A DNA stretch of 64,000 nt from an uncultured Opitutales bacterium (GTDB lineage Bacteria > Verrucomicrobiota > Verrucomicrobiia > Opitutales > CAYWEO01): positions 487 through 64,486 of the forward strand of contig CAYWEO010000005.1 in NCBI GenBank assembly GCA_964457855.1. The letters are read 5' to 3'. Of this stretch, positions 460 to 55,595 are shown piece by piece (the first letter of the stretch is position 1; each line of letters opens with the position of its first letter). A program made the translations under genes and the position numbers. Under the pieces are notes generated by a model. That model was not told the origin of the DNA. It worked only from the letters and a program-made list of their open reading frames with translations, and ran no database searches.

Positions 460-552
460 TGGCGGAGAGGGGGGGATTTGAACCCCCGGAGCCTCTTTTG
501 GAAGCTCGCCTCGTTAGCAATGAGGTGCTTTCGGCCACTCAGCCACCTCTCC
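460..552 (-). tRNA. tRNA-Ser(GCU), type II with long variable arm, CCA encoded
   Basis: Reverse complement is GGAGAGGTGGCTGAGTGGCCGAAAGCACCTCATTGCTAACGAGG...GGTTCAAATCCCCCCCTCTCCGCCA. The anticodon loop TTGCTAA gives GCT. Confidence 0.9.
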
Positions 553-1177: not shown

Positions 1178-1300
1178 AGAAAGAAGAAAAAAGCCGTTAA
1201 AAAGCAACTAAAAGGAGAAAGAAGAAAAGAGAAAGACATTAAAAAGAAAGACATTAAAAAGAAAGACGGAAACGAGAAGGAAAATAAGAACGAAGAATAA
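1178..1300 (+). pseudogene. ATG-less relic of the K/E-rich 3' tail of a GKFW-family paralog
   Basis: The frame reads ..KKKAVKKQLKGERRKEKDIKKKDIKKKDGNEKENKNEE*. Its last about 30 nt and the downstream TGATCG...AAAACAGCAGTCGCGAGATTGCTGTTTTTT match the 3' ends of genes 1428..2915 and 32206..34002. Confidence 0.4.
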
Positions 1301-1328
1301 AAGAACTGATCGCAGAATACTTTCATCT

Positions 1329-1359
1329 AAAAACAGCAGTCGCGAGATTGCTGTTTTTT
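1329..1359 (+). terminator. conserved intrinsic terminator of the GKFW-family cassette
   Basis: Hairpin AAAACAGCA-gtcgcgagat-TGCTGTTTT followed by a T-run. The identical sequence occurs at 2944, 4540 and (reverse) 32146. Confidence 0.75.
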
Positions 1360-1427
1360 GTTGACACGCGCAAAATCTTTCCAAAACTGGCAATCATACA
1401 ACAATTCAACCCTCTTAAACTAATCGT
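1360..1427 (+). promoter_or_regulatory. conserved promoter/5'UTR cassette of the GKFW family
   Basis: GTTGACA...GGCAATCATACAACAATTCAACCCTCTTAAACTAATCGT lies directly before the ATG. It is near-identical at 2975..3043 and (reverse) 32077..32145. The exact -10 box and TSS were not determined. Confidence 0.45.
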
Positions 1428-2915
1428 ATGCGAACAAAACTATTCAAACAAACAGGCATCTTCTGCCTAGCCCTCGCCACCGCCCTATCGGCATTTGGCA
1501 TGAAAAAACAGAACAACACTTCATGCTCCCAAGACAGTTTCTTGAACGCCATTTCTGAAAAGAAAGAACCCAATCAAAAAACTCGCAAGTATTTCATTAA
1601 AACTAAAAAAATACTCGAAGAAAACGATAAGCCGTTGGAGGCTGCAATTATCGACGAAACCGAAACCGAACCACTGCTCATTCTCATTGGCAAATTTTGG
1701 TTAAATCCGAAATTAGAGGGGCAAACATTTAAGAACATCACTCGCCTGAAAATCCTTCCAGAAAACTGTGATACTCTAAAGAAGTATACTGACGTATTCG
1801 AAGCCTACACGAATGAATGCAATGATTTATTCGAAAAAGACCAATACAAATGCATCCCTAAGGACGATGGGATTTTTAACAGCGAAGACGTGAAAAGTAT
1901 TTCTAAACTCTTCCCAAACTTGAAAATTCTTAACATATTTTATTGGAATGCCCCAGTGACGATACCTGCTTGGTGCGCCAGTATCAAAAATTATTTGATT
2001 GAACAAGGACTTAAAGAAATTTACATCAATGCTCAGCAATTGGATACTGCCGACCAAAAATATGTCTTCAATGCGCTAAATAAACGTAGCGATGGGATCA
2101 AGGTAGGCTTTTTAAGTTCAAGTCTTTCCAAATCCAAGCTAAACGACCTAGGACCATTAGGAAGAAACAAACAAATAAATAGTCATTGCTATAACAAAGA
2201 AAAGGCTGAAAAAATTGGGCGAAAAAAACTTGAAAAGAAAGGAATTACGACAGAGGTATTTAAATATGACAGTAAGAGGTCAGAGAACATACCATCGCTT
2301 AAGGCAAAAACCGAATACGAGGACTATTGTTGGGCGGCTATGGAACAATGTGGGTCAGATAAGGTATTGGCACTGTCAGGAAAATTTTGGCTTCTCCCAA
2401 AATTCTCAAGCGTACAGTTCAAAAACATCACACGTGTTGCATCTTTGCCGCACTGTCAAGCATTTGATGACTCACTACTCGACTCCCGTTACATCCCGGA
2501 AGATGACTGCCAGTTTACATCCTCTGACGCGAATAAAATTCGGCAACTCTTCCCAAACTTGAGATCCGAAAATCTCAAATTACTAGGTAAATGGAAGTTC
2601 ACCGAGACAGAGCAGATGCTCTGGATGATACCCTGGATGAACCAAGAATCTGAGGGTTCTTCTAATCAAACATTACAAGCATTAACGACGAATCATTCAA
2701 TCCAAGACAGCGAAAATCCATCGGTAAAATTCCTTTCTAAAGCTGAGAAAAAAAAGCTGCAGAAAGCCGCAAAGAAAGAACACAAAAAGATTGTGAACAA
2801 AATGATAGCGATAGAGGAGACTAGTCAGAAGGAGAATAACGAGAAAGAAATTGAAATTAAAAAGCAGCCAAACAATAAGGAAAACGAAACGAAAAACGAA
2901 GAACAAAAGAAGTGA
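1428..2915 (+). CDS. secreted two-module 'GKFW/DDG/LFPNL' repeat protein with K/E tail (paralog 1)
   Basis: Signal peptide MRTKLFKQTGIFCLALATALSAFG|MK. Two internal copies of the module GKFWLxPK..FKNIT..IP(K/E)DDxxFxSxDxxxIxxLFPNL. The tail ends ..EKEIEIKKQPNNKENETKNEEQKK. Confidence 0.8.
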   Translation: MRTKLFKQTGIFCLALATALSAFGMKKQNNTSCSQDSFLNAISEKKEPNQKTRKYFIKTKKILEENDKPLEAAIIDETETEPLLILIGKFWLNPKLEGQTFKNITRLKILPENCDTLKKYTDVFEAYTNECNDLFEKDQYKCIPKDDGIFNSEDVKSISKLFPNLKILNIFYWNAPVTIPAWCASIKNYLIEQGLKEIYINAQQLDTADQKYVFNALNKRSDGIKVGFLSSSLSKSKLNDLGPLGRNKQINSHCYNKEKAEKIGRKKLEKKGITTEVFKYDSKRSENIPSLKAKTEYEDYCWAAMEQCGSDKVLALSGKFWLLPKFSSVQFKNITRVASLPHCQAFDDSLLDSRYIPEDDCQFTSSDANKIRQLFPNLRSENLKLLGKWKFTETEQMLWMIPWMNQESEGSSNQTLQALTTNHSIQDSENPSVKFLSKAEKKKLQKAAKKEHKKIVNKMIAIEETSQKENNEKEIEIKKQPNNKENETKNEEQKK

Positions 2916-2943
2916 TCGAAAAATCTCTTCAATCCTCTTACCT

Positions 2944-2974
2944 AAAAACAGCAGTCGCGAGATTGCTGTTTTTT
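2944..2974 (+). terminator. conserved cassette terminator
   Basis: Same hairpin and T-run as 1329..1359. Confidence 0.75.
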
Positions 2975-3043
2975 GTTGACATGAGAAAAATCTTTCTACA
3001 ATTTGGCAATCATAAAACAATTCAACCCTCTTAAACTAATCGT
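2975..3043 (+). promoter_or_regulatory. conserved promoter/5'UTR cassette
   Basis: TTGACATGAGAAAAATCTTTCTACAATTTGGCAATCATAAAACAATTCAACCCTCTTAAACTAATCGT. Virtually identical to the reverse complement of 32077..32145. Confidence 0.45.
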
Positions 3044-4501
3044 ATGCGAACAAAACTATTCAAACAAGCAGGCATTTTCTGCTTAGCTCTCGCCACCGCC
3101 CTATCGGCGTTTGGCATGGAAAATCAGAAGAAAACTTCGTGCTCTTCTTCCAAACAAGACAACTTCTTGAACGTATTTTCTGAGAAGAAAAAACCCAATA
3201 AAAAAACTGTCAAATATTTCAATAAAACTGCACTCATACTCGAAGAAAACAATAAACCGCTGGAGGTTGCAATTCTAGGCGAATCCCCTCCACCGGTTAT
3301 TGTTGTTGGCAAATTTTGGTTAAATCCGAAATTAGAGGGAAAAACATTTGAAAACATTACGGAGCTGAACGTCCTTCCCAACGATAGTGATGTCTTGAAG
3401 GAATATGCCGACTTGCTTAAAAAACATGACTACAAATACATGCCTAAAGACGATGGAATTTTTAACAGCGAAGACGTGGAAAGCATTTCTAACATCTTCA
3501 AAAACCTAAAAATTCTTAACATAGCTCATTGGGGTATTCCAGAGAATCAAGTTGGTTGGTGCGCCAGCATCAAAAAGCATCTGATCAAACGGGGACTTGA
3601 AAAACTTTGCATCAATGGTCAACAATTGGGTTCTGAAGGCAAAGCGTGGATCTTCGAGAATCTCGCAAAAAACAACAAGAACAGCAAGTTTTACGTATGC
3701 TTTCTTGTTCCATCTGACTCCACATCCAACCAAGACAACGTTAAAATCCCAGAAAGTAGACTCTCAGTAGCAAGCCCTAGTTTCATTAGCAAAAAAAAGA
3801 CTGAAAAGCTGGCGATGAGAAACTTTAACAATAAAGGAATGGTGCTAGGAACAACTACGCTTGACATGGGCAAATCAATGAACCAATCGCCACTTAACGT
3901 CAGTAAAACTGACTATGCAGATCAATGCTGGTCGATCATTGAACAATGTAAGCCAGGAGAGACATTGGCATTGCCAGGCAAATTTTGGAAGATGAAAAAG
4001 TTTTCCAATGTGATGTTTATAAATATCACTCATTTTATGTCTACGTCAGGCAACAACAGGATTAAAGACTCACCACTTGATCCCCGTTGCATCCCGGACG
4101 ATGACGGCCTATTCACACCCTCTGACGCAAATGACATTCAAAGACTCTTCCCCAACTTGAAGTTAACAACAAATGTCACATTAACTGGGTGGAAGCTCGA
4201 TGAGTTGGCATTTAAACCTTGGATTTCCCAACAACTCAAAGAAGAATCTGAGCGTTCTTCTAATCAAACGCTAACGGGAAGCAATCTAGCACTAACCATC
4301 CAAAAGGGCGACGAAAATTCATCTGTAAAAGTCCTAGCTAAGTCCGAAAGAAGCAAGCTGAAGAAAAAGAAGCGCAACCTAGACAAAAAATTAGCCAAAG
4401 AAATCAAAGAGCAAGAAAAACAAGCCATTGAGGAGCAGAATAAAAAAGAGGAAGAAATTAAAAAATACCCAAGCAATAAAGAAAGCGAGAACGAGAATTA
4501 A
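3044..4501 (+). CDS. secreted two-module GKFW-family protein (paralog 2)
   Basis: Signal peptide MRTKLFKQAGIFCLALATALSAFG|ME. Modules GKFWLNPKLEGKTFENIT..MPKDDGIFNSEDVESISNIFKNLKILNI and GKFWKMKKFSNVMFINIT..IPDDDGLFTPSDANDIQRLFPNLK. Tail ..KKEEEIKKYPSNKESENEN. Confidence 0.8.
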   Translation: MRTKLFKQAGIFCLALATALSAFGMENQKKTSCSSSKQDNFLNVFSEKKKPNKKTVKYFNKTALILEENNKPLEVAILGESPPPVIVVGKFWLNPKLEGKTFENITELNVLPNDSDVLKEYADLLKKHDYKYMPKDDGIFNSEDVESISNIFKNLKILNIAHWGIPENQVGWCASIKKHLIKRGLEKLCINGQQLGSEGKAWIFENLAKNNKNSKFYVCFLVPSDSTSNQDNVKIPESRLSVASPSFISKKKTEKLAMRNFNNKGMVLGTTTLDMGKSMNQSPLNVSKTDYADQCWSIIEQCKPGETLALPGKFWKMKKFSNVMFINITHFMSTSGNNRIKDSPLDPRCIPDDDGLFTPSDANDIQRLFPNLKLTTNVTLTGWKLDELAFKPWISQQLKEESERSSNQTLTGSNLALTIQKGDENSSVKVLAKSERSKLKKKKRNLDKKLAKEIKEQEKQAIEEQNKKEEEIKKYPSNKESENEN

Positions 4502-4539
4502 AACAAATCATTAAAAAATCTCTTCAGTTCTCTTACCCG

Positions 4540-4569
4540 AAAACAGCAGTCGCGAGATTGCTGTTTTTT
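4540..4569 (+). terminator. conserved cassette terminator (no promoter follows)
   Basis: AAAACAGCAGTCGCGAGATTGCTGTTTTTT. Confidence 0.75.
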
Positions 4570-4698
4570 GTTGCCTGAATTATGGGAACACCGTCAGAAT
4601 TGCAAAGCCTCTACCCTGAACTGAAAGCAAAACAAACCACGGGAATCCCAGACAACAGAACAACTTCTGTTCGTCATGCGCAATGCTTGCCTCTCGCT

Positions 4699-7944: not shown

Positions 7945-8079
7945 ACGCCGTAGCGATTTCGAGCGCTAGGGTTCCGTTACAGAAAAATTTTAACCCCTTA
8001 CGTATTTCAATACGCTCGGGGATTAAAATTTTTCTGTAGCCGTCCCTATCATCTCGAACTTGCTACGGCGTCTAACAAA
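7937..8079 (+). repeat. PE-A element; its inverted flanks include the glgC stop
   Basis: CATTTGTTAGACGCCGTAGC-GATTTCGAGCGCTAGGGTTCCGTTAC...ACGTATTTCAATACGCTC...GTAGCCGTCCCTATCATCTCGAAC-TTGCTACGGCGTCTAACAAATG. Confidence 0.9.
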
Positions 8080-8097
8080 TGCGGTCAGCAGATAAAT

Positions 8098-8165
8098 CCT
8101 CGCGCGCCTGCTCGTCATCTCAAAATCGCTCCCGTCTTCAACAAATGCGAATCTAACAAATGTGG
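8098..8165 (+). repeat. PE-A right-arm half copy followed by two more inverted copies of the glgC 3' end
   Basis: CGCGCGCCTGCTCGTCATCTCAAAATCG, then ..GTCTTCAACAAATGCGAATCTAACAAATGTGG. Confidence 0.75.
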
Positions 8166-8343: not shown

Positions 8344-8892
8344 ATGGAAGATTTCTTGTCATGTGACGTTTGCGGGAAGCCGGCGAACGTGCATTTAACG
8401 CAGGTCATGAATGGGCAGATGGTGCAGATTCATCTTTGCGAGTCGTGTGCGCACAAGCAGGGTTTGACGATATTGAAGGAGTTTTTGGCGAAGCAATTTT
8501 CTGGCGAGCTACATCAGGCAAAAATTTATAAGACGTCGAAGAGTCGGTTTAGTTCTCAGACCTGCCCGAAATGTCACTATAACGCCCATCTTTTGAAGAA
8601 GAGCAAGCGGCTCGGCTGTGCGGAGTGTTATCAACACATTCCTAATATCGCGAAATACGTGGATCAGTCGCATAAAAAAACGATTTATCGTGGGAAATGC
8701 CCTCCGAATATCCTGCAACGTCAGAATGCTCACAAGCAAATCCTGTCTTTGGAGCAACAAATGCGGCTGGCAGTCAATGAAGAACGTTACGAGGATGCCG
8801 CAAACCACCGGGATGAGCTTAAAAAGGTGAAATGCAGCGACGTTTTCAATCATAACAATAGCGCCAACGAGATCCTGCAGCCTATTCGATAA
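8344..8892 (+). CDS. mcsA: McsA-like activator of protein arginine kinase (UvrB/UvrC-motif protein)
   Basis: Cys pairs CDVCG..CESC and CPKC..CAEC, a C-terminal UVR motif EERYEDAANHRDELKK, and a position directly upstream of mcsB-clpC. Confidence 0.85.
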   Translation: MEDFLSCDVCGKPANVHLTQVMNGQMVQIHLCESCAHKQGLTILKEFLAKQFSGELHQAKIYKTSKSRFSSQTCPKCHYNAHLLKKSKRLGCAECYQHIPNIAKYVDQSHKKTIYRGKCPPNILQRQNAHKQILSLEQQMRLAVNEERYEDAANHRDELKKVKCSDVFNHNNSANEILQPIR

Positions 8893-8894
8893 CA

Positions 8895-9983
8895 ATGACG
8901 ATGACGATGAAAACGAACTCCTTTACCCAGCCTAAAAACGACCTCATCGGTGCCACGAGAACGGCAACACCGTGCGTTTTCAGTTCCACCGTTCAAATTG
9001 CGAGGAATTTGGCGAACGTCCCCTTTCCTCATTGGGCAAAAGATTCTCAACGGAACGACGCCCTTGCCCTTTGCAAACGCGCGATTCAAAGCCTACCGTT
9101 GCTCGAAGATGTCCCCTTTTACGACGTTTCAGAGCTGTCGGAAGCGGAGAGAAAATACTTGGTCGAAGCCCATTTCATCACCCAAAACCCTGCCCAAACG
9201 AAACCTGGAACGGGACTTTTTCTTTGCGAGAAACACAACATTGCAATCGCGATTAACGACGACGATCATCTTTCGCTCCAAATTTTAAAAAAAGGCTTCA
9301 ACGTGCTTCCTTCGTGGAGGAAAATCGACGCGATTGATTCCCAACTGGAACGGTTTCTCGATTTCGCCTTTTCCGCGGAATTTGGCTATTTATCGCCCTC
9401 AATAGCCAACGTTGGGACTGGCCTACACGCATCCGTCACGGTGCACCTTCCAGGTCTTGCGATGGCCAACCAAACGGAGGCTCTCATCGCAACAGTTAAG
9501 CAGCTCCAAGGGGACATCATTGGCGCGTTTGGAGACGCCGTACGTGCGCCAGGAGGTTTCTTTAGAGTTACCAACCTACAGACCCTTGGGGACCCCGAAG
9601 CTACAATCCTGAAGCGCTTTAGTAACACAATCAAAACGATCGTCGAAAAGGAACTCGATGCCAGGAAAACTCTCCTCGAAACGAAACGTGCCAAGCTGTT
9701 CGACAAAATCGGCAGGGCGTACGGAATTCTCAAGAACAGCCACTCGTTATCGCTTGACGAGACCATCCATTTCCTCTCTTTCATCAGGCTTGCCAGCGAA
9801 CTTAAGCTGCTTCCTGCGACAACGCTCCAAAAAATCGACAACCTGATCCTGCGCGTCCAACCAGCCCATCTCGTTCTCGAAAACCCCCAACTCGCGTCAG
9901 AAAACGATTCCCACGACGCCTTCCGTGCCTCCTTGTTACGTCAGGAATTGACCGCGATTCCCATGCCAAACTTTCATTCGTAA
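8895..9983 (+). CDS. mcsB: protein arginine kinase (ATP:guanido phosphotransferase family)
   Basis: 362 aa. Phosphagen-kinase-like core (..YLSPSIANVGTGLHASVTVHLPGL..) and mcsA-mcsB-clpC synteny. Confidence 0.85.
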   Translation: MTMTMKTNSFTQPKNDLIGATRTATPCVFSSTVQIARNLANVPFPHWAKDSQRNDALALCKRAIQSLPLLEDVPFYDVSELSEAERKYLVEAHFITQNPAQTKPGTGLFLCEKHNIAIAINDDDHLSLQILKKGFNVLPSWRKIDAIDSQLERFLDFAFSAEFGYLSPSIANVGTGLHASVTVHLPGLAMANQTEALIATVKQLQGDIIGAFGDAVRAPGGFFRVTNLQTLGDPEATILKRFSNTIKTIVEKELDARKTLLETKRAKLFDKIGRAYGILKNSHSLSLDETIHFLSFIRLASELKLLPATTLQKIDNLILRVQPAHLVLENPQLASENDSHDAFRASLLRQELTAIPMPNFHS

Positions 9984-10000
9984 ACCGCTATTTTCCAACC

Positions 10001-12730
10001 ATGATTGTCCCCTTTCACAACCTCACCCCTCGGCTCCAACAAGCCCTCGCTCTCGCAAAGAAGGCTTCCGTGCACTTCCACAGCACCTATGTCGGCACGG
10101 AACACCTCCTGATGGGCCTCTCACAACTGGGTCAGGGAGTTGCCATTAATATCCTCAACAAAATGGGCGTTCGTACGGAAGACTTTCTCGCTTTGATAGA
10201 AACGCAAATCAAGTCCGAGTCAGCGGAATGGAGTGAAAAAACGGACTCCCGTTCAAGCATTTCCGATAAATCCGACAAACGCGCGTCTAAAAGCTCTTTC
10301 AATCAAGACATCGTGCTGTCGCCGCAAGCAAAGAGCGCCCTCGAATTGGCCACAAAAGAAGCCATTGCGCTGGGACATTCGTACGTCGGTACGGAACACC
10401 TCCTTCTCGGCCTCATCAGGACGGAAAATGGTCTCGCTTTCCGCATTTTGAAGGGTCTTAACATCGATCTTGACGACTGCAGAAAGGAAATTTTAGCGGA
10501 ACTGAATCCTAACTACAGCGCCGAAGGTAACAGCGACAGCGAATCCGACGACGATGATGATAGTGACAGTAATGGTGATAGCGACAACGGTACTACCCAT
10601 ACCCATAATGACGACACAATGCCCTTTGCCGAGGCATCTGCCGTCAATCATCCATCCGGTTCTCCTCAAAACGGCGCCAGGAAGGAAAAAAAGGACAGCG
10701 GCGACCGGAAAAATCCCGTTTTGCGCGCTTTCGGACGTGACCTCACAGAACGCGCCATCAATAAGGAATTAGACCCCGTCATCGGCAGAACCAAGGAAAT
10801 CGAGCGCGTCATCCAAATCCTTTGCAGGCGAACGAAGAACAACCCCATTTTGATCGGAGAGGCGGGCGTCGGGAAAACGGCGATCGTCGAGGGTCTTGCC
10901 CAAGCTATCGCGGACGGGAAAGCACCCGAACCCCTTCTCGATAAACGCATTATCATCCTCGACCTAGCCCTGATGGTCGCTGGCACAAAGTACAGAGGCC
11001 AATTTGAGGAGCGTCTCAAAACCGCGATGGACGAAATCCGACGTGCCAAAAACATCATCATTTTTCTGGACGAGCTCCACACGATCGTGGGTGCGGGGTC
11101 CGCAGAGGGCGCTATGGATGCATCAAACATCCTGAAACCGGCCCTTTCGCGCGGCGAAATCCAGTGCATTGGCGCCACGACGGTTGCGGAGTATCGGAAA
11201 CACATTGAAAAAGACAGTGCCCTCGACCGCCGTTTCCAAGGGGTCAATATCGATCCACCATCCGTCGAGGAAACTGTCCTGATTCTCAAGGGTATTCAGA
11301 AAAAGTACGAGGAACACCACAAAATTACGTTCTCAGACAGCGCCGTTGAACTCGCTGCAAAGCTTTCCGATCGTTACATCACGGGACGCCATTTGCCCGA
11401 CAAGGCCATCGATGTTCTTGACGAAGCCGGCTCAAAATGCCGCATCAGCGCTCTCACGCCCCCACCGTTCATGGAGAAGTTACAGACGGAAATCGACGGC
11501 GTTCATGCAAAAAAAGAAGACGCTATCCGTCAACAACGTTTCGAGGAGGCCGCAAAATTCAGAGATGAAGAAAAAAAACTGAAGGAACAGCAAGAAAGCA
11601 AGGTCACTGCTTGGCGCAAAACGCATGCGGAAAAGTTCATGCAAGTCACTGATGAAGACATCTTTCGCGTCGTCTCGACCGCTACCGGTATCCCCCTCAT
11701 GAAAATCGAACAAAAGGAGAGCAAAAAGCTCCTCAATCTCGAAAAAGACCTGCAATCCCTCATCATCGGCCAGGATCACGCAACGGAAATCGTCGCCAGG
11801 ACCCTCCGCCGTTCCCGCGCAGACCTGAAGGATCCCAAACGTCCGATCGGCTCCTTTCTCTTCCTGGGACCCACGGGAGTTGGCAAAAGCTTCCTCGCTA
11901 AACTCATCGCAGAGAAGATTTTCGGCAGCAAAGAGGCCATCATTCAGATCGATATGTCCGAATACATGGAAAAGTTCGCCGTTTCCCGCATGATCGGCTC
12001 TCCGCCCGGCTACGTAGGCCACGAAGAGGGGGGGCAACTCACGGAAGCCGTCAGACGCAAGCCGTATTCCGTCATTCTGTTCGACGAAATCGAAAAAGCC
12101 CACCCGGACGTCATCCAAATCCTCCTCCAAGTCCTAGAAGAAGGCCGTTTAACCGACAGCCTGGGCCGATCTGTCGATTTCCGCAACACGATCCTTATCA
12201 TCACCTCAAACGTTGGTGCAGAAATTCTCCAACGCGACACCGCCCTCGGCTTTCACGGAGGCAGCGCAAATGAAGACTTCGAACGCATTAAAGAACACAT
12301 CCAAGAGGCCACCAAACGCGCCTTTAAGCCCGAATTCCTCAACCGAATCGGCGAAATCGTCGTCTTTCGCCCACTTTTGAAGGAGCACATCGAACGCATC
12401 ATCGACATCGAGCTCAGCTCCATCCAAAAACGTCTGCAGCCGAGAAATATCCAGCTGAAACTCCATCCGTTAGCAAAGGCGTTCTTGGTCGAAAAAGGAT
12501 ACGATAAAAAATACGGCGCACGTCCACTCAAACGCGCCCTCGAACGTTTCCTCGAAGATCCCCTAGCGGAAGCCATTCTTAAAGAAGAGGTTCGGCATGA
12601 CATCCCCCTGCAAGTTGTTCTTGCGAAAGATAAAAAAGCACTGCAATTTATCCCTATCGAACCCAAAGCAAATGCTGCCGAAAAGCCATCTCCGGCAAAA
12701 AGTAAGGCCAAAAAACAGGAAACTGCATAA
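10001..12730 (+). CDS. clpC: ATP-dependent Clp protease ATP-binding subunit ClpC, with a long acidic insert after the N-domain
   Basis: Two Clp_N repeats, Walker A motifs GEAGVGKT and GPTGVGKS, and a UVR-like linker RFEEAAKFRDEEKK. The insert is SDSESDDDDDSDSNGDSDNG... Confidence 0.95.
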   Translation: MIVPFHNLTPRLQQALALAKKASVHFHSTYVGTEHLLMGLSQLGQGVAINILNKMGVRTEDFLALIETQIKSESAEWSEKTDSRSSISDKSDKRASKSSFNQDIVLSPQAKSALELATKEAIALGHSYVGTEHLLLGLIRTENGLAFRILKGLNIDLDDCRKEILAELNPNYSAEGNSDSESDDDDDSDSNGDSDNGTTHTHNDDTMPFAEASAVNHPSGSPQNGARKEKKDSGDRKNPVLRAFGRDLTERAINKELDPVIGRTKEIERVIQILCRRTKNNPILIGEAGVGKTAIVEGLAQAIADGKAPEPLLDKRIIILDLALMVAGTKYRGQFEERLKTAMDEIRRAKNIIIFLDELHTIVGAGSAEGAMDASNILKPALSRGEIQCIGATTVAEYRKHIEKDSALDRRFQGVNIDPPSVEETVLILKGIQKKYEEHHKITFSDSAVELAAKLSDRYITGRHLPDKAIDVLDEAGSKCRISALTPPPFMEKLQTEIDGVHAKKEDAIRQQRFEEAAKFRDEEKKLKEQQESKVTAWRKTHAEKFMQVTDEDIFRVVSTATGIPLMKIEQKESKKLLNLEKDLQSLIIGQDHATEIVARTLRRSRADLKDPKRPIGSFLFLGPTGVGKSFLAKLIAEKIFGSKEAIIQIDMSEYMEKFAVSRMIGSPPGYVGHEEGGQLTEAVRRKPYSVILFDEIEKAHPDVIQILLQVLEEGRLTDSLGRSVDFRNTILIITSNVGAEILQRDTALGFHGGSANEDFERIKEHIQEATKRAFKPEFLNRIGEIVVFRPLLKEHIERIIDIELSSIQKRLQPRNIQLKLHPLAKAFLVEKGYDKKYGARPLKRALERFLEDPLAEAILKEEVRHDIPLQVVLAKDKKALQFIPIEPKANAAEKPSPAKSKAKKQETA

Positions 12731-14707: not shown

Positions 14708-14738
14708 TTATGGAGATTTTGGGCCTGAAGTAATTTTT

Positions 14739-14903
14739 GGAGAGAGTGTTTTTTGCAAAAAACACCCCCTCCAAACCTCCCCCAAAAAAATTTTTATTCG
14801 GAAGGCATTTTTGAGGCACGTAGTGCCACAAAAATGCCTTCCGATGTGCTTTTCTTTGAAGGGCCCGGGAAACTTTCTTTTCTTCGAAAAGAAAGTTTCC
14901 CGG
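14739..14903 (+). repeat. 3HP element, complete (modules A, B, C)
   Basis: A is GGAGAGAGTGTTTTTTGCAAAAAACACCCCCTCC. B is CGGAAGGCATTTTTGAGGCACGTAGTGCCACAAAAATGCCTTCCG. C is CCCGGGAAACTTTCTTTTCTTCGAAAAGAAAGTTTCCCGG. Confidence 0.9.
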
Positions 14904-28463: not shown

Positions 28464-28600
28464 GAAATTTAAAAGTAAAAGTATTTTAGAATATTGCAAG
28501 AATTGTCAAATCTTTTTGCAATTTTGCGAGATGATACATAAAAAGGTTATGTTTTTTCCGAAGAACGCAAGCTTTTTGTATGGGACATCGGTATTTTTAC

Positions 28601-28705
28601 GGCGGGGGTGTTTTTTGCAAAAAGCACCCCCGCCGGACCTCCCCCTTAAAAACTCTCGTTCGGAAGGCATTTTTGTGGTACTCCGTGCCCCAAAAATGCC
28701 TTCCG
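28601..28705 (+). repeat. 3HP modules A and B (module C displaced to 28914)
   Basis: GGCGGGGGTGTTTTTTGCAAAAAGCACCCCCGCC and CGGAAGGCATTTTTGTGGTACTCCGTGCCCCAAAAATGCCTTCCG. Confidence 0.9.
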
Positions 28706-28707
28706 AT

Positions 28708-28845
28708 GTAGGCGGCGTAGCGATTTCGAGCGCTAGGGTTCCGTTACAGGAAAATTTCAACCCCGCTTACGTACGTTAGTACGCTCGGGGGTTAAAATTT
28801 TTCTGTAGTCGTCCCTATCATCTCGAACTTGCTACGCCGCCCCAC
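28708..28845 (+). repeat. PE-A element inserted between 3HP modules B and C
   Basis: GTAGGCGGCGTAGC-GATTTCGAGCGCTAGGGTTCCGTTAC...ACGTACGTTAGTACGCTC...CCCTATCATCTCGAAC-TTGCTACGCCGCCCCAC. Confidence 0.9.
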
Positions 28846-30319: not shown

Positions 30320-30550
30320 ATGGCTGACAAATCCAATAAAAATCCCGAAAACGTCCCCGGAAAATACTACGTCGATAGTCAATGCATCAATTGCAACCTC
30401 TGCATCGAAATCGCTCCCGATATCTTCGAAATGAGCGAAGACAACGGCTACTCCTTTGTCAAAAAACAACCCATAACCGACGACGAAATCGCTCGCGCTG
30501 ATGAGGCTTTGGAAGGTTGCCCTGTACAAGCGATCGGAAAATCCGCGTAG
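30320..30550 (+). CDS. small [4Fe-4S]/[3Fe-4S] ferredoxin (76 aa)
   Basis: KYYVDSQCINCNLCIEIAPDIF...EGCPVQAI. The rest of ORF 29609..30550 is antisense to ddl and was discarded. The TAG stop lies in a PE-A half copy. Confidence 0.8.
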   Translation: MADKSNKNPENVPGKYYVDSQCINCNLCIEIAPDIFEMSEDNGYSFVKKQPITDDEIARADEALEGCPVQAIGKSA

Positions 30551-30988
30551 GGTACGTCGATTTTGAGCATTAGGGTTCGTTCAGAAATTTTTTTAGGATC
30601 TGGACCATCAGGCAATAAAATTAGGTAGTTGGTTTTATTGTCTCGTGGTCCAGATTCAATCTTTAAACAGTGCCAACGCTGGGAAAATGTTTCCATTAAA
30701 TTCTCTATCAATCCATTTCGAAAAGATTGATCCCTTAGGCTAATGATTTCTTGATTTTTCTTCCCGCGGATCCTGTTTAATGTTGCGGATTTTCCATTGC
30801 TGAGTTGTACAGTGGTCTCGGTGCTTTCATGATATACCAAATGCATCCTCAGAGGAATATGTTAAAAGTTGATTTGAATCATTCTTTTCTTTGCCCTTCT
30901 TCCGGGTTTCTTTCATCCCAAACGCCGATAAAGCGGTGGCGAGAGCTAGGCAGAAAATGCCTGTTTGTTTGAATAGTTTTGTTTTCAT
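30448..30988 (-). pseudogene. frameshifted member of the MxTKLFKQ signal-peptide family
   Basis: ATG 30988 gives MKTKLFKQTGIFCLALATALSAFGMKETRKK.. and stops after 53 aa at 30827. The overlapping +1 frame (MHLVYHEST.., ORF 30448..30846) continues into a PE-A half copy and into the antisense of the ferredoxin gene. Confidence 0.4.
30546..30586 (+). repeat. PE-A left-arm half copy
   Basis: CGTAGGGTACGTCGATTTTGAGCATTAGGGTTCGTTCAGAA. Confidence 0.7.
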
Positions 30989-31065: not shown

Positions 31066-32076
31066 TCAGTTCTTTGTTGCGTTTTCCTTTTCTTTCTTTT
31101 TTTCTTCCTTAAAGGCTTTTTTGCTTTGCTTGTGCTTCTCCTTCTTCAGCGCGCCCTTCTCCTTTTGTGAGAGTTTTTTCTTCGTGTTTTCTTTCTTTTT
31201 AGTCATTTCCAAGAGATCTTGGGGTGAAATTACAATATTTTTGCGTGTTATTGTCTCAACGGGTCTTCCCTCTTTCCTATCTTCCGCTTCGTTGACTCTG
31301 ATTTTGAGACTCTTGGATGGAGTGGTATTGGTTATAAGGTCTGATTGTGTAATTCTCTTGAGTGATTGATCGCGTGTTTCTTCACTGACGCGTAAAATAA
31401 AGGTGATTCTTGTCTGATCAGTTTTGAGATCGGCGATTGCGTTTCTTGTTGTTTTGTCGAACTTTGAGTATCCGAGCGTCAAATGATCCAGTTGCGTGAG
31501 TCCATTCATGAGCCTCTTGACGTCTTTGAATGTTAGCGACCAATCGGATATGTCGAGATCCTCAACGTTGGGAAAACCCTTGATGATGAAATTGATGGCT
31601 TTTGGTGTTAAAATATTGTTCAATTGTTCGATATTAGTGGGCGTAATGCAGAGCTTTTGAATCTTTGGTTGCGGTTTGTTGAAATCTTTGGTTTTTTTGA
31701 GCCAGGGTTTCCCGGTGATGATGAGCTCCGTTGAGCTATCGGTTGCTTTGGATGGAAGCTCATGGTTCACGATTGGGTCACTTTCCTCGGTTTTTTCTTC
31801 GTTTTTAGGTGCATTAATAAAGAGCTTTTCGTCTTCTGTTTTATTTTCCTCCTTATTCTCAATCTTGACGGATGTGTTGTTGTTTGTAAATGGATCGAAA
31901 ATAAAACTTGGTTCTGGTTCTTCTTGCTTGTCTTCAGGTTTTGTGATGTCGAATAGGTTAGAAATGTCTTCGGAGAGCTTTGTATCTAGCTCTTGATTTT
32001 TCATCCCAAACGCCGATAAAGTGGTGGCGAGAGCTAAGCAGAAGATGCCTGTTTGTTTGAATAGTTTTGTTTGCAT
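31066..32076 (-). CDS. secreted single-module family member with LRR-like C-half and K-rich tail (paralog 4)
   Basis: Signal peptide MQTKLFKQTGIFCLALATTLSAFG|MK, then ..TGKPWLKKTKDF..GFPNVEDLDISDWSL..LDHLTLGYSKF.., tail ..KKAFKEEKKKEKENATKN. Confidence 0.75.
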   Translation of the reverse strand: MQTKLFKQTGIFCLALATTLSAFGMKNQELDTKLSEDISNLFDITKPEDKQEEPEPSFIFDPFTNNNTSVKIENKEENKTEDEKLFINAPKNEEKTEESDPIVNHELPSKATDSSTELIITGKPWLKKTKDFNKPQPKIQKLCITPTNIEQLNNILTPKAINFIIKGFPNVEDLDISDWSLTFKDVKRLMNGLTQLDHLTLGYSKFDKTTRNAIADLKTDQTRITFILRVSEETRDQSLKRITQSDLITNTTPSKSLKIRVNEAEDRKEGRPVETITRKNIVISPQDLLEMTKKKENTKKKLSQKEKGALKKEKHKQSKKAFKEEKKKEKENATKN

Positions 32077-32145
32077 ACGATTAGTTTAAGAGGGTTGAAT
32101 TGTTTTATGATTGCCAAATTGTAGAAAGATTTTTCTCATGTCAAC
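32077..32145 (-). promoter_or_regulatory. conserved promoter/5'UTR cassette (reverse orientation)
   Basis: The reverse complement is nearly identical to 2975..3043. Confidence 0.45.
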
Positions 32146-32177
32146 AAAAAAACAGCAATCTCGCGACTGCTGTTTTT
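32146..32177 (-). terminator. conserved cassette terminator
   Basis: The reverse complement reads AAAAACAGCAGTCGCGAGATTGCTGTTTTTTT. Confidence 0.75.
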
Positions 32178-32205
32178 GGGTAAGAGGATCGAAGCGATTT
32201 TTCGA

Positions 32206-34002
32206 TCAGTTCTTTTGATCTTCGTTTTTATCTTCCTTCTCGTTTTCGTTCTTCTTGTTAATTTCAATTTCTTTTGCCTCCAGGTTCTTTTTAATTTCAA
32301 CTTCCTTGTCTTTTTTCTCCAATTCTTTCGGGTGCTCCTCGTTTTGTTTTAAGTCGTTTTGCGGCTTTTTGGGGAGTTTGCTGCATTCCTCTATGTCTTT
32401 CCCGCCCGATAATTCTTCCATGTGCTTATCGTGTTGTTTTAAGTCGTTTAAGAGTTTGTTGTATTTCTCCATGCATTCTTCCTTAAGTGTTTCTGGGCGC
32501 TTGTTTTGTTTGAAGTCGTTGTGCAGCTTTTGAATTCTTTGCAGCTCGTCCACGAGTTTGTCGTATTCCTCTATCTCCTTCATGAATTTAATGACTTTCT
32601 TTTCTTCCTGTTGATTTTTTACTTTTATCGCTTTGCATTGTTCTATGGTAAGATCAATAACGTATGATGTGTCATTAATGTCGAGTTTCTTAATTGTAAG
32701 CTTTGTGTTTGGTAAAGCGAGAGTTGATTCGCGTTTGATTTTTCGGCGCTGCCAATATATATACGCGTTGGCCGATTTATCGAACTCCCACGTGTTAAGG
32801 TTCAAGTGTTCTTGGGCAAAGGGTAGGTTCGGAAAGCAATTTCTTATGGCCATCAAGTCCTTAGAGGTTAATTTACCGTCATCTGCAGGGGCAGGGGTCT
32901 TCAGGTTGTCAAACCAAAGTATTAGTGGGTTTTTTTTACAGGTGTATTCGCTTGGTATGGACTCAACCTCTTTAATCATTGGGAATTGGTATTTAGAAAT
33001 GTTTGGAATGAGCCAAAATTTCCCGCGCATCAGTAATGGTGATCTTTTTGATTCTAATTTATCATCTTGTTTGATTTTTTTAGTAGCTTCTAGGCAGGAT
33101 TGTTTTTGGATGGCGTCTAAACAACATTCTTCATAGGCTTTTTTGTTGAATTCTATAGTATGATTGGTGTCTGCAGGACTATATTTAGAGAGTACAGTTC
33201 CTTGTTTATCTAAGAGCTTCCTGTCTGCTTTCTTCAATTTACTTTCAGTTAGCTTATTTGAGAATAAGCCGCCAGACAATCCGAGTGTATCGATAACTTC
33301 CTTGCGAGCAGGTATCAATATCTCGCAATTGTTGTTACGGCAAGTTTTCATTATTATTCGGATATCTTTCTTTTCACACTCATGCAGGTAAAGTTTTTTT
33401 AATGAACTTTTTAGCAAGATTTTCTTAACCTGTGTGCACCATTCAAAGAGTTTGTTAAGTGGCAGATCCCAACTCACCACATTAAGTTCTTGTAGTTCTG
33501 GAAAGATGTCCACAAGGTGATCAAAGTCCTCTGCGTAAAGAATTCCGTCATCGGGTGGAATGGCAATGGATAACAATTCGTTTGCAGGGTCAATTTCTTG
33601 TAATGTCTTTTTATTGCGTACAATAGTAAGTTTTGTGATATGCTTGTATTTTATTTTTTTCCAGTCGCCATACTTCCAGAAGTTTCCCCCAAGTGTGGTC
33701 CAGCAATGCACGCTCGTAGGGGGAGCTAGTTCTGATGCGTTTTGTTCCAGTTTGGCGTTTTGTTCATCACTTGCCTTAAGGATGTTTTTAGAGCTTTTAA
33801 CATACTTGTTTTTCTTGTTTTTGGAAAAGCTTCCATCGTCTTTCTCATTTAAAAACGTTTTGTTGAGTATTTCATTGAGACATTCCTCGTTTTTTTTGTT
33901 TTGCCCTTTCATGCCAAAGGTTGGTGATAGAACGAGAAAGGCTGCGTAAAACGCGCTAGCCTTTGTGAGGTTTTTTAGAAGGTTATATTTCGACGTATAC
34001 AT
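32206..34002 (-). CDS. secreted two-module GKFW-family protein with long K/E tail (paralog 3)
   Basis: ..KASAFYAAFLVLSPTFG|MKGQ. Modules GGNFWKYG..IPPDDGILYAEDFDHLVDIFPELQELNV and RGKFWLIPN..APADDGKLTSKDLMAIRNCFPNL. Tail ..KEVEIKKNLEAKEIEINKKNENEKEDKNEDQKN. ATG 34002 preferred over TTG 34050. Confidence 0.75.
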   Translation of the reverse strand: MYTSKYNLLKNLTKASAFYAAFLVLSPTFGMKGQNKKNEECLNEILNKTFLNEKDDGSFSKNKKNKYVKSSKNILKASDEQNAKLEQNASELAPPTSVHCWTTLGGNFWKYGDWKKIKYKHITKLTIVRNKKTLQEIDPANELLSIAIPPDDGILYAEDFDHLVDIFPELQELNVVSWDLPLNKLFEWCTQVKKILLKSSLKKLYLHECEKKDIRIIMKTCRNNNCEILIPARKEVIDTLGLSGGLFSNKLTESKLKKADRKLLDKQGTVLSKYSPADTNHTIEFNKKAYEECCLDAIQKQSCLEATKKIKQDDKLESKRSPLLMRGKFWLIPNISKYQFPMIKEVESIPSEYTCKKNPLILWFDNLKTPAPADDGKLTSKDLMAIRNCFPNLPFAQEHLNLNTWEFDKSANAYIYWQRRKIKRESTLALPNTKLTIKKLDINDTSYVIDLTIEQCKAIKVKNQQEEKKVIKFMKEIEEYDKLVDELQRIQKLHNDFKQNKRPETLKEECMEKYNKLLNDLKQHDKHMEELSGGKDIEECSKLPKKPQNDLKQNEEHPKELEKKDKEVEIKKNLEAKEIEINKKNENEKEDKNEDQKN

Positions 34003-34166: not shown

Positions 34167-34239
<73 letters not shown>

Positions 34240-34245
34240 CTCTCG

Positions 34246-34381
34246 TGTCCAGGAAGACGTCACTTTTGAGCGCTAGGTTCGTTGCTCAAAAAATTTAACC
34301 CATCACGTACTACAGTACGCTCAGGGATTAGATTTTTCACGCGCCTGCCTATCATTTCAAAATTGACGGCTTCCTAGACAC
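34246..34381 (+). repeat. PE-A element directly after the tRNA
   Basis: A 26-nt inverted flank pair GTGTCCAGGAAGACGTCACTTTTGAG / TTCAAAATTGACGGCTTCCTAGACAC. Core ACGTACTACAGTACGCTC. Confidence 0.9.
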
Positions 34382-34435
34382 GATGGGGCTAGAGAATTTC
34401 AAAATAGAGGCTCTCTTAGCGGTTTTGATGTGCTG

Positions 34436-34502
34436 GGGGATTTCGGTTTTGCGTAGTCTTCCCTATCATCTCAAAATTGACGGCTTTCTGGACACGATGG
34501 GG
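34436..34502 (+). repeat. PE-A right-arm half copy with the same flank repeated
   Basis: GGGGATTTCGGTTTTGCGTAGTCTTCCCTATCATCTCAAAATTGACGGCTTTCTGGACACGATGGGG. Confidence 0.8.
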
Positions 34503-34511
34503 CTTAAAGTT

Positions 34512-34619
34512 CGGAAGGCATTTTTATGGCACTACGTGCCATAAAAATGCCTTCCGATATGACTTTTCTTTGAAAGGTCCGGAAAACTTTTCTTTTCTTC
34601 TGAAAAGAAACTTTTCCGA
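34512..34619 (+). repeat. 3HP modules B and C
   Basis: CGGAAGGCATTTTTATGGCACTACGTGCCATAAAAATGCCTTCCG and TCCGGAAAACTTTTCTTTTCTTCTGAAAAGAAACTTTTCCGA. Confidence 0.9.
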
Positions 34620-36418: not shown

Positions 36419-37015
36419 TTACAATTTTTCTTGGATTTCTTTCAATTGATCGATCAGGTCGCTGAGGAATGAGGCGAGTTCTTCGTTTGGATTGTTGAGG
36501 TATTTGACTGCATGTTGGGTCTCTTCGTAGAGTAGCGTGACGGTGGTGATGAGATCGCTCAAGAGGACTTTGGGTTTCGGTGGTGACGAAAGTTCAAGCA
36601 ATTGTCCTAGTCCGCCCGAGAAGGAACAGGATTCCATTTGGAAACATTTTTTTTGGATGTCCTTGGCGTCTTGCGACTTGATTCCACAGGCTGTGATTGC
36701 ATTTTCTGTTGAAACAAAGGTGATTAAAGAGGTTCCCCACGTTTTTAAAAGGGAGTTGGTTTTTTGAGTATTTGCTGAATTAAGCGCGTTTTTGTATTGG
36801 TTGAGTAGATCGAGGAGCGTATTTATGCTGTTTTTGCAATAACGACAGCCATCGCCGCTATAATTTTTGTATTCCGGAAAGTTGATGCCAACCTCTTGTT
36901 TTTTTGGATTATTGTCCTTCATGCCAAATGCCGGTAGCGTCCCGAACAGTGTGCAGAAGGCCAAGAAAAGCACTTGGGGAATTATTTTGAAACGTATATT
37001 GAGTTTTTCTGTCAT
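36419..37015 (-). CDS. secreted hypothetical protein with AFG|MK junction
   Basis: ..FLAFCTLFGTLPAFG|MKDNNPKKQE. Probably helical, with 4 Cys. ATG 37015 preferred over GTG 37024. Confidence 0.6.
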   Translation of the reverse strand: MTEKLNIRFKIIPQVLFLAFCTLFGTLPAFGMKDNNPKKQEVGINFPEYKNYSGDGCRYCKNSINTLLDLLNQYKNALNSANTQKTNSLLKTWGTSLITFVSTENAITACGIKSQDAKDIQKKCFQMESCSFSGGLGQLLELSSPPKPKVLLSDLITTVTLLYEETQHAVKYLNNPNEELASFLSDLIDQLKEIQEKL

Positions 37016-37024
37016 AAATATCAC

Positions 37025-45585: not shown

Positions 45586-46677
45586 ATGAAAATAATATCT
45601 AAATTAACAAAATGCGCGCTACCTGTAGCGCTTTTAACCGCTGGGGCGATATCGGCGTCCTGGTGTGATGATGCCAGAGCTTATACGTCACTTTCTACGA
45701 GCGATCCATTTAAGTGGAACAACACTTCTGATGTTTCTAGCATTGGAAAGGACATTGAGTTGTATAAACTTACGAATAGTGAGCCTACAGTGCAGCAATT
45801 GATCGTGACGGGAAACAATAAAGTTTCGCAGAAAGAATTGGAAAACGTGCAGAAATTGCTGCCAAGTGTGCAGGACATTTCTTTTTTTAATTGTCCAAAG
45901 CTAGGAAGTAAGCATCTTCTTGGATGGAATAACCTGCGTTCTATCATGTTCAATGGGTGTCCAAAGATAGATGATCGTACGGCGGCCTATATAGCCTTTA
46001 AGTACGGGTGGACTTTAGAGTCGATTTTTGTGGATGGAACGAAAATTACAATGGAGGGCCTAAAGTGGATCGCTGAGCATTGCACAAATGTGAAAGACGT
46101 GCACATAGGGAACTTGCTGAAAAATGATGGCGATTTGGAAACGATCCTTAATGCATTTAACAAAATGGAATGCCTATCATTATCTGGCTTAAAGAAGACT
46201 GTGTCATTCAATCTTGACGAGGTTTACCGTAATGTGCATTTCATAAGCCTTGAATCTTGCGATGTAGACGATGACGCTGTTGTTAATATGTGTGCACGCT
46301 TCCCGGATTCACAGGTCATTACTTTCCGAGGCTGTCCGATAACAGACGAGGCTGTAACAACGATCATGCAGGAATTGAACGTGGAGTGCATTTCCTTTGA
46401 TGACTGCAAGAGCATCACTAACAAGGCCTTGAGTAATATTGCTATGAATTTAAAATCCAGCCTTAAGCGAGTCTGTGTGAAAGGGGCTACTCAAATTACA
46501 CAAGAGGCTGCCGCTTCTTTGAAATCAATCAATATTGAATTTATTCCTGCCGACACTAAAATTAACACATCCAGAAGCGTGAACCAGAACATTGAAAATA
46601 GTGACAATGGTAACTTCTCGAATAGTAAAATCGAAAACAAGGAAATCGAAATTAAGAAAAATGATAATAAGAAATAA
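45586..46677 (+). CDS. secreted CC-type LRR protein, paralog 3
   Basis: MKIISKLTKCALPVALLTAGAISA|SW, then ..CPKIDDRTAAYIAFKYGWTLESIFVDGTKITMEGL.., ends ..ENKEIEIKKNDNKK*. Confidence 0.8.
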   Translation: MKIISKLTKCALPVALLTAGAISASWCDDARAYTSLSTSDPFKWNNTSDVSSIGKDIELYKLTNSEPTVQQLIVTGNNKVSQKELENVQKLLPSVQDISFFNCPKLGSKHLLGWNNLRSIMFNGCPKIDDRTAAYIAFKYGWTLESIFVDGTKITMEGLKWIAEHCTNVKDVHIGNLLKNDGDLETILNAFNKMECLSLSGLKKTVSFNLDEVYRNVHFISLESCDVDDDAVVNMCARFPDSQVITFRGCPITDEAVTTIMQELNVECISFDDCKSITNKALSNIAMNLKSSLKRVCVKGATQITQEAAASLKSINIEFIPADTKINTSRSVNQNIENSDNGNFSNSKIENKEIEIKKNDNKK

Positions 46678-46814
46678 GGCGTCCTAAATGGCGAAAAACC
46701 TGCGGATTCCGATCGCAAAGACTGGAATCTCGGGGATCAGAGGGGGCATTTTGCCTTCTCTTGTCGTTGTTAATGCGCCTCGTGTAAAAGCTACCCCCCA
46801 AAGAAAACAACTCA

Positions 46815-46919: not shown

Positions 46920-46985
46920 AAAAACACCCCATTTTAAAGCAATTCTTCTTTACAATTCCACAACAACTCCGCTATAAGTCTTCAC

Positions 46986-55491: not shown

Positions 55492-55595
55492 ACGACGTAA
55501 ACATAAAACATCCCCAGGCCTTTTTCAACAAAATTCTGGAGGGAGGCGAGAAGTGAGTAAGGGTTGGCGAATATAGGGTGCGAGGCCATTCCATT

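Follow-up and report, generated by a model that had tools for sequence, protein, structure and literature searches.

A junction block shared by orphan, leucine-rich-repeat-like exported proteins of an Opitutales bacterium and its probable homogenisation by gene conversion

Introduction

In the babA/babB genes of Helicobacter pylori and the vsp/vlp genes of Mycoplasma, gene conversion keeps the 5′ (and 3′) ends alike, while the centres are variable. A leader peptide that is near-identical from paralog to paralog is also found in the 'upstream homology box' (UHB) genes of Borrelia burgdorferi. For these Erp/OspE-F paralogs, PMC7002432 (citing Marconi 1996, Akins 1999) describes a near-identical promoter/upstream region ahead of divergent surface proteins and invokes recombination. 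In phytoplasmas, effectors with the SVM signal (PF12113) such as SAP11 and SAP54 combine a conserved signal-peptide motif with fast-diverging secreted proteins of a host-dependent bacterium (PMC8026896). Here, we describe a related arrangement in a 64,000-nucleotide (nt) stretch of an uncultured Opitutales bacterium (contig CAYWEO010000005.1 of assembly GCA_964457855.1, forward strand, positions 487 to 64,486; hereafter the window, in whose coordinates all positions are given). The window encodes the g family, a set of predicted exported proteins whose modules resemble leucine-rich repeats (LRRs), and a block running from the 3′ end of one gene into the signal peptide of the next recurs among its members.

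We consider it rather probable that this orphan exported LRR-like family has had its junction block homogenised by gene conversion while the gene bodies diverged. The phenomenon as such is already known from other host-interaction gene families; the g family itself is new. It would provide a small, clean case of concerted evolution of an expression-export module in a fast-diversifying family of exported binding proteins, and such families have barely been described in Verrucomicrobiota (Opitutales).

The repeated block and the genes that carry it

A block of ~180 nt occurs three times in the window, at 1330-1505 (+), 2945-3126 (+) and 31994-32176 (-), and comprises, in order, a hairpin terminator, TTGACA, a G-poor leader and a 24-residue signal peptide. 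An earlier reading of the letters alone (the sequence-only reading) had described it as a reusable 5′ cassette of terminator, promoter, leader and signal peptide; its strings and peptide consensus are present where it placed them, within a few bases, and the peptides are as it gave them. The 'cassette' is, however, more aptly regarded as the junction of a unit duplicated in tandem, and the family is larger than that reading had it, with g5 and g4 (which holds the signal-peptide copy at 30950) to be added; a second family, the gene trio h, had also escaped that reading. The g family comprises the following open reading frames (ORFs) and remnants:

1428-2915 (+): g1, 495 aa; signal peptide 1428-1499 (AFG↓MK); KEIEIKK tail at 2844-2864
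~1668-2120 and ~2343-2663 (+): LRR-like modules a and b of g1
3044-4501 (+): g2, 485 aa; signal peptide 3044-3115; tail motif KEEEIKK at 4445-4465
~3287-3715 and ~3941-4261 (+): modules of g2
32206-34002 (-): g5, 598 aa from the ATG at 34002 (614 aa from the TTG at 34050)
31066-32076 (-): g3, 336 aa; signal peptide 32005-32076; K/E tail without KEIEIKK
30827-30988 (-): g4, a 53-codon stub; signal-peptide copy 30917-30988, 94% identical to that of g3
1178-1300 (+): relic K/E-rich tail without a start codon; CAA>TAA just 5′ of the ancestral TGA

These fall into two clusters, g1/g2 (+) and g5-g3-g4 (-), which are inverted relative to each other and 29 kb apart. The tandem genes g1 and g2 encode proteins that are 48% identical. 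Upstream of g3 lies g5, a full-length paralog that has both modules (26% identity to g1), with a diverged 5′ region and a signal peptide of its own sequence (33913-34002 (-), ending ...PTFG↓MK), and its tail holds KEVEIKK (32287-32307) and KEIEINK (32254-32274) on the minus strand. The g5-g3-g4 stretch is matched at 100% identity in JGI metagenome 3300045131 and Logan run SRR12261224, accessions for which a literature search returned nothing. Public protein collections hold g5 merely as a 257-aa C-terminal fragment (32206-32979 (-), P0005) because the JGI contig begins inside the gene.

The stub g4 lacks the terminator/promoter block. An ORF at 30448-30846 (-) was considered as its hidden cargo and rejected, being unrelated in sequence; these 132 codons overlap the end of g4 in another frame, at the 3′ end they run antisense to a gene for a small ferredoxin (~30320-30550 (+)), and the ORF is probably the remnant of a decayed gene rather than a real gene.

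Positions 1178-1300, which the sequence-only reading took for the relic of a further paralog, indeed hold a K/E-rich frame without ATG. It can be aligned with the tails of g1 and g5, the match to g5 extending over the original stop context AAGAACTGATCG, in which CAA has become TAA, and 1241-1318 is 81% identical to 32197-32274. The relic, which derives from an upstream paralog now lost or partial, keeps the stop context of the g5 tail, and this shows that the duplicated unit starts within a K/E tail.

Within and around the block, the following elements can be distinguished:

1330-1363 (+): terminator-like hairpin T1; exact 30-mer; 12-13 bp stem, GCGA tetraloop, U-tract
2945-2978 (+): terminator-like hairpin T2 at the end of g1; exact 30-mer and fold
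4540-4573 (+): terminator-like hairpin T3 at the end of g2; exact 30-mer
32143-32176 (-): terminator-like hairpin T4 at the end of g5; exact 30-mer; one additional T
1361-1427 (+): promoter-like TTGACA of g1 (1361-1366) and leader; -10 degraded to CAAAAC
2976-3043 (+): promoter-like TTGACA of g2 (2976-2981), 15-nt spacer, TACAAT (2997-3002) and leader
32077-32144 (-): promoter-like element and leader of g3, 99% identical to the g2 copy

The hairpin sequence AAAACAGCAGTCGCGAGATTGCTGTTTTTT is found exactly at 1330, 2945 and 4540 (+) and at 32147-32176 (-), i.e. four times as against none expected from shuffles. With a fold energy of -16.6 kcal/mol (z=-4.4) it looks like an intrinsic terminator, in which function it would close the upstream gene. 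At 4540 the hairpin stands without the rest of the block: similarity of the T3 region to the other copies breaks off at GTTG, and neither promoter nor leader follows. Conversely, the signal peptide occurs without the rest at 30917-30988 (-). A 34-mer from the signal peptide is found four times with at most two mismatches (1433 and 3049 (+); 32038 and 30950 (-); none expected), and the signal-peptide regions of the block-bearing proteins read MRTKLFKQTGIFCLALATALSAFGMK, MRTKLFKQAGIFCLALATALSAFGME and MQTKLFKQTGIFCLALATTLSAFGMK.

TTGACA overlaps the end of the U-tract, and in g2 and g3 TACAAT follows 15 nt further on; in g1 the corresponding -10 reads CAAAAC because of a 1-nt deletion. The diverged upstream region of g5 has TTGACG, 15 nt and CACAAT in the same register as g2 and g3. 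That so diverged a copy retains TTGACN, 15 nt and NACAAT supports a promoter of this unusual 15-nt spacing, which the block is thus predicted to carry. The final ~40 nt 5′ of the ATG are nearly free of G, contain no Shine-Dalgarno sequence and stay single-stranded in the minimum-free-energy fold. A comparison with Rfam gave no match to the block.

The signal peptide consists of an n-region MRTKLFKQ (+3), a 15-residue h-region IFCLALATALSAFGM (mean hydropathy 2.08) and the site A-F-G↓M-K. These are the features of a canonical Sec type-I substrate (cleaved by signal peptidase I), which bears out, by inspection, the signal peptide of the sequence-only reading. There is no second hydrophobic 19-mer in the g proteins and, by eye, neither a lipobox (GIFC does not fit L-[AS]-[GA]-C) nor an RR motif, so that the family is predicted to be exported via Sec. 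Known C-terminal sorting signals (PEP-CTERM, LPXTG, T9SS CTD, GlyGly-CTERM) were not found: the tails are charged and have no NCBIfam or Pfam match.

Conservation of the block and relationships among its copies

Between g1 and g2, the block (1330-1505) is identical at 163/177 positions (92%) and the remainder at 918/1465 (63%; Fisher p=1e-17), in agreement with the sequence-only reading, which saw far greater divergence in the mature parts. Its non-coding portion (1330-1427) has diverged by 8%, compared with 48% at synonymous sites of the mature region (p=5e-14). By the Nei-Gojobori method, synonymous (dS) and nonsynonymous (dN) divergence amount to 0.25 and 0.018 in the signal peptide and to 0.78 and 0.41 in the mature part, with dN/dS ~1 over residues 176-305. 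Across the copies, the terminator is identical at 34/34 positions in three and has one additional T in the fourth; identity is 84-97% in the promoter/leader and 89-93% in the signal peptide, falling to 61-85% in the final 60 nt 5′ of the hairpin and to ~60% in the tail farther upstream. Upstream region and leader together are more conserved than the mature part, which is the pattern of conserved-leader/variable-body families.

The copies of the block are not related in the way the bodies are. The bodies group as ((g1,g2),g5), with g3 most distant. In its promoter/leader, however, g2 agrees with g3 at 64/66 positions (97%) and with g1 at 57/66 (86%), and the whole non-coding block of g2 (2944-3047) differs from the g3 copy by a single T (99% identical). 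Likewise, the tail and 3′ untranslated region (3′ UTR) of g1 are 85-88% identical to those of g5 and 74% to those of g2. The tract shared by g2 and g3 runs from ~2844 to 3126, i.e. from the tail of one gene into the signal peptide of the next, and stops abruptly at 3126, 3-4 codons past the signal peptide. Block and body trees are thus incongruent and the tract border is sharp, the pattern expected of gene conversion, as judged by comparison of identities. Because of this incongruence, gene conversion is the best explanation. An internal control is provided by g5, in which the layout is homologous (TTGACN, 15 nt, NACAAT, ...TFGMK) and the sequence has diverged along with the body.

A scenario that would account for these relationships starts with unequal exchange within the low-complexity tails, giving rise to tandem duplications. 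The junction of the duplication unit would then extend from the final 60-100 nt of the preceding K/E tail to the signal peptide and include terminator, promoter and leader; non-reciprocal recombination would re-homogenise this junction, also between the inverted clusters 29 kb apart. Purifying selection on the signal peptide would add to the conservation of the block, and the binding-domain bodies would meanwhile diverge fast. Each gene would form a separate transcription unit, the upstream gene being closed by a strong hairpin and U-tract, with a -35-like TTGACA on the end of the U-tract, a TACAAT-like -10 15 nt later and a leader of ~40-60 nt without Shine-Dalgarno sequence. The coding sequence would start with the 24-residue type-I signal peptide, followed by a mature part of one to two LRR-like units and a K/E tail.

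An orphan family with an LRR-like module

The GKFW...FPNL module occurs twice in g1 (from residues 88 and 318) and twice in g2 (89 and 312). By hhalign, one half is homologous to the other (probability 98%, E=3.5e-14), the two modules being the product of an internal duplication. The sequence-only reading had credited every mature part with two such modules; this holds for g1 and g2, whereas g3 has one degenerate GKPW...FPNV copy, which is without the P.DDG insertion, retains GKPW...FPNVEDLDISDW and continues into LRR-looking sequence.

That reading could assign the module to no family, and no Pfam or NCBIfam family matches the g proteins. A trimmed g1/g2/g5 profile, run with HMMER against 1.84 billion cluster representatives, returned only g1, g2 and the g5 fragment, and a word-indexed protein search returned only g1 and g2. 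The g family is a true, lineage-restricted orphan. At the nucleotide level, GTDB representative genomes were scanned for exact occurrences of the signal-peptide 34-mer, and JGI metagenome contigs for a 26-mer of the signal peptide and a 24-mer of the terminator, in both cases without a match; since an identical JGI contig exists, the source sample must lie outside those collections. A profile search with the signal-peptide alignment returned g4 alone and was insensitive, missing the known g1-g3.

AlphaFold2 gives a confident model of the first domain (predicted local distance difference test, pLDDT, 81.9; predicted template modelling score, pTM, 0.79), in which strands alternate with helices and the final three strands are 28-30 residues apart. 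A model of the full two-module protein was dropped in favour of this single-domain model, as its pLDDT of 58 made Foldseek searches with it meaningless. The weak Foldseek matches of the first domain are enriched in LRR and F-box proteins (the NLRP1 LRR, tropomodulin, Rad7, D3 and giant-virus LRR or F-box proteins). Structure prediction, which the sequence-only reading had put forward for the module, yielded a model with LRR-leaning matches and no significant match in PDB or BFVD. A profile search of PDB sequences returned a single match, the Bacteroides LRR protein 3sb4_A (E=1e-4), covering a motif of the form DDG..sED...I..FPNLK.LNI or G.L..eD..i...FP.LkvLdIs, which is present twice in 3sb4 as in g1, g2 and g5. 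On account of the AlphaFold2 pattern, the weak Foldseek matches and this motif, the module is named LRR-like: the evidence suggests an LRR-like beta/alpha solenoid, not a proven LRR. The K/E-rich C-terminal tail is probably helical.

A second exported LRR family and shared sequence tags

Elsewhere in the window, at 42980-46800, three tandem genes encode bona fide LRR proteins, the h family:

43034-43858 (+): h1, FBXL2-like CC-type LRR protein
44170-45297 (+): h2, FBXL2-like CC-type LRR protein
45586-46677 (+): h3, FBXL2-like CC-type LRR protein

These match FBXL2 (E=2.6e-20) and also plant EBF1, and have the signal peptide MKI(I/L)SKLTKCALPVALLTAG in common. They possess their own block of tail, terminator, promoter, leader and signal peptide, again more conserved than the bodies and of the same architecture as in the g family; this same conserved junction lends the junction model independent support. 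A superfamily uniting g and h was considered and is unsupported by sequence.

What the two families do share is a tail motif. The pattern (K)E(I/V/E)EI(K/N)K occurs seven times in the six-frame translation of the window (0.01-0.02 expected), each time 0-26 residues from a stop codon, and remains significant when each protein's own tail is shuffled (P<=0.008):

2844-2864 and 4445-4465 (+): KEIEIKK-type motif
32254-32307 (-): KEIEIKK-type motif
43835-43855, 45274-45294 and 46639-46659 (+): KEIEIKK-type motif

The motif is encoded differently in the two families (ATT/GAA in g, ATC/GAG in h), so its conservation is at the peptide level, and a 3′ cassette common to g and h at the DNA level was rejected for the same reason. 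A 360-aa orphan ORF at 20722-21804 (-) has a hydrophobic N-terminus and a K/E tail with two copies of EKIEKIENK that resembles the KEIEIKK tails.

Signal peptides ending ...AFGMK, ...TYGMK and ...TWGMS are found on the ORFs 36419-37024, 57038-57991 and 21811-22488 (-), which are without a confident Pfam match; 57038-57991 (-) matches Pfam LRR_4 weakly (E=1.2e-4, under the curated cut-off). The ending [FYW]GM[KS] may be a cleavage-site motif typical of the lineage. It is a long shot, and in our view distinctly unlikely, that the [FYW]GM(K/S) ending and the KEIEIKK tail form a two-part address code (one part for export, the other for retention or host targeting) across eukaryote-like LRR families of this Opitutales lineage that are unrelated in sequence. 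If it were so, KEIEIKK would serve a symbiont secretome as a C-terminal signal for sorting or targeting that is not hydrophobic and has not been described before. The sharing of this motif by g and h is the most interesting lead to emerge here, and the two tags, [FYW]GMK and KEIEIKK, could be used to mine the secretome of the organism.

Weighing the explanations

Several results weigh against the favoured explanation or parts of it. The copy number of the block and the range of its cargo were judged within one 64-kb contig. The assignment of g3 to the family is weak (hhalign to the module profile, E=1e-4, probability 57%), the best Foldseek matches reach only E=0.067 (PDB) and 0.007 (BFVD), short of significance, and hhalign of the g family against the bona fide LRRs of the h family gives a probability of 6.6%. 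Export is predicted by inspection. A simple sigma-70 consensus scan calls no promoter in the block because the spacer is 15 nt, and g1 is without a good -10; the same scanner does not list the hairpin, possibly an artefact of its rules. Finally, the changes in the signal peptide are mostly synonymous (dN/dS ~0.07), and the contrast at synonymous sites is weak when the signal peptide is taken alone (4/19 vs 129/267, p=0.03). As the changes are nearly all synonymous, purifying selection accounts for part of the conservation.

Whether such selection, owing to a shared regulator or an optimised export signal, could account for all of it without recombination among the copies is the first question to be weighed. 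The low dN of the signal peptides (0.018-0.054 vs a dS of 0.12-0.47) would fit, as would the clustering of the g1/g2 differences in the promoter spacer, and the recurrence of the ...[FYW]GM[KS] ending on unrelated exported proteins of the window suggests a selected motif. Selection alone, however, leaves unexplained why the non-coding block of g2 is 99% identical to that of g3, its most distant paralog, and 86% to that of g1, its nearest relative, or why the tail and 3′ UTR of g1 are nearer to g5 than to g2; g5, moreover, illustrates that the layout tolerates extensive sequence change. We therefore regard selection alone as unlikely, albeit deserving serious consideration. The sequence-only reading had left open a choice between homogenisation by gene conversion and shuffling of the module onto new cargo, and of these the incongruence favours the former. 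Recruitment by recombination onto unrelated cargo appears very doubtful: g3 has just the block in common with g1 and g2 by BLASTP, g4 places the signal-peptide segment alone before unrelated sequence and KEIEIKK is common to g and the sequence-unrelated h family, but g3 keeps a recognisable GKPW...FPNV...W module with an LRR-like continuation, g4 is a 53-codon stub and the h family differs in signal peptide, promoter, terminator and motif codons. Within these 64 kb, every full-length carrier of the block (g1, g2, g3) is a member of the GKFW family, g3 weakly so, and the same leader is not found on unrelated mature domains; no recombinase or transposase was detected among the window ORFs scanned with Pfam. 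Shuffling is also unsupported in view of g5, from which it follows that a homologous promoter, leader and signal peptide were present in the ancestral gene.

The inverted repeats of the two clusters (158 nt at 95% and 104 nt at 88%, 29 kb apart) also raise the possibility of a phase or antigenic switch, in which inversion between the blocks at ~3.0 and ~32.1 kb would swap expressed and silent bodies. Every copy, though, has a complete promoter-like element, ATG and signal peptide, so that inversion would leave expression unchanged, and the intervening 29 kb are filled with housekeeping genes. Silent cassettes truncated at the 5′ end are absent, the scanned ORFs include no invertase gene, and the single promoter site, silent 5′-less cassettes and site-specific recombinase of shufflon- or vsa-like systems were likewise not found, as judged for the last from the Pfam-scanned ORFs. 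Such a switch is accordingly highly improbable. Barely credible, lastly, is an artefact of metagenome assembly by collapsed repeats or chimeric joins between strains: the source is indeed a metagenome-assembled contig, and public short-read contigs break in or near the repeats (L082 starts inside the g3 signal peptide), but the copies differ consistently at many positions, their ORFs are intact and the g5-g3-g4 junctions recur at 100% identity in two other assemblies. Homogenisation of the junction block by gene conversion, with purifying selection contributing, thus remains the explanation we favour.

Genomic context

GlmS is 63-67% identical to homologues from metagenome-assembled genomes of Opitutales/Opitutaceae, and the divergent glmS-glgC arrangement is found in 70/80 such loci, none of which carries g- or h-family genes. 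GC content is 38-42% in the g, h and other exported orphan genes and 49-52% in those for GlmS, GlgC, a ClpB/ClpC-like ATPase, CTP synthase, Ddl and transketolase, a gap that foreign origin or fast, AT-biased evolution could explain. The g proteins may act in host or surface interaction, which would fit the label 'effector-like' given to them by the sequence-only reading, and the location of an orphan family amid exported, AT-rich genes for eukaryote-like LRR proteins suggests that the organism lives in association with a host or surface.

A tRNA-Ser gene (460-552 (-)) lies near g1/g2 and a tRNA-Met gene (34167-34240 (+)) directly upstream of g5; the adjacency of both g clusters to tRNA genes is reminiscent of the insertion sites of genomic islands. 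At 55581-55857, a 123-nt direct repeat (95% identity, 154 nt from start to start) overlaps the 3′ part of another tRNA-Met gene (55836-55912 (-)) and may reflect either duplication of part of the tRNA or the scar left at an integration site. Intergenic palindromes 40-120 nt long that resemble repetitive extragenic palindromic (REP) elements fall into several families (TTCGGAAGGCATTTTT...AAAAATGCCTTCCGA, TCCGGGAAACCCCC...GGGGGTTTCCCGG) and often lie beside tRNA/tmRNA genes and gene ends:

7946-8130, 14734-14903, 20580-20728, 25643-25946, 28590-28840 and 34251-34600: REP-like repeats
38413-38570, 46844-46928, 52272-52380, 56546-56790, 58289-58434 and 61321-61483: REP-like repeats

At 8344-12730, a trio of genes (UVR-motif protein, ATP:guanido phosphotransferase and Clp_N/AAA+ ATPase) resembles the mcsA-mcsB-clpC stress operon.

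Comparison with known systems

Among host-interaction systems with demonstrated antigenic or phase switching, bab and vsp/vlp differ from the g loci, in which no switching machinery or silent copies were found. The phytoplasma SVM effectors resemble the g family in the pairing of a conserved N-terminal signal peptide with a diverging mature part, but are small proteins with unrelated mature parts, encoded in mobile units and without sequence similarity to the g proteins in the Pfam scan. With the F-box/LRR proteins of symbionts (FBXL2, EBF1), the window has in common the matching LRRs of h, the predicted export of both g and h and their AT-richness relative to the genome; the g family itself, however, has no detectable homology to those proteins, and no F-box is present.

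In gene organisation, a close parallel is provided by the Borrelia UHB paralogs, in which, as in the g family, a conserved upstream region and leader is joined to divergent mature parts. The Borrelia genes encode lipoproteins of distinct mature families (OspE, OspF, Elp) on cp32 prophage plasmids, whereas the g genes lie on the chromosome, encode type-I signal peptides and make up one LRR-like family, with a conserved block that takes in the tail and terminator of the upstream gene as well. At the protein level, a close counterpart is the BT_1240-type LRR protein of Bacteroides thetaiotaomicron (3sb4), with which the g proteins share a motif present twice per protein and may share a beta/alpha solenoid, the predicted repeat spacing being 28-30 residues. 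Compared with 3sb4 and RI/CC-type LRR proteins, the match of the g family is confined to the motif, without a significant fold match, a Pfam LRR or the canonical LxxLxLxxN, and the GKFW strand and the P.DDG insertion set the g family apart from the 3sb4-type LRR proteins as features of its own.

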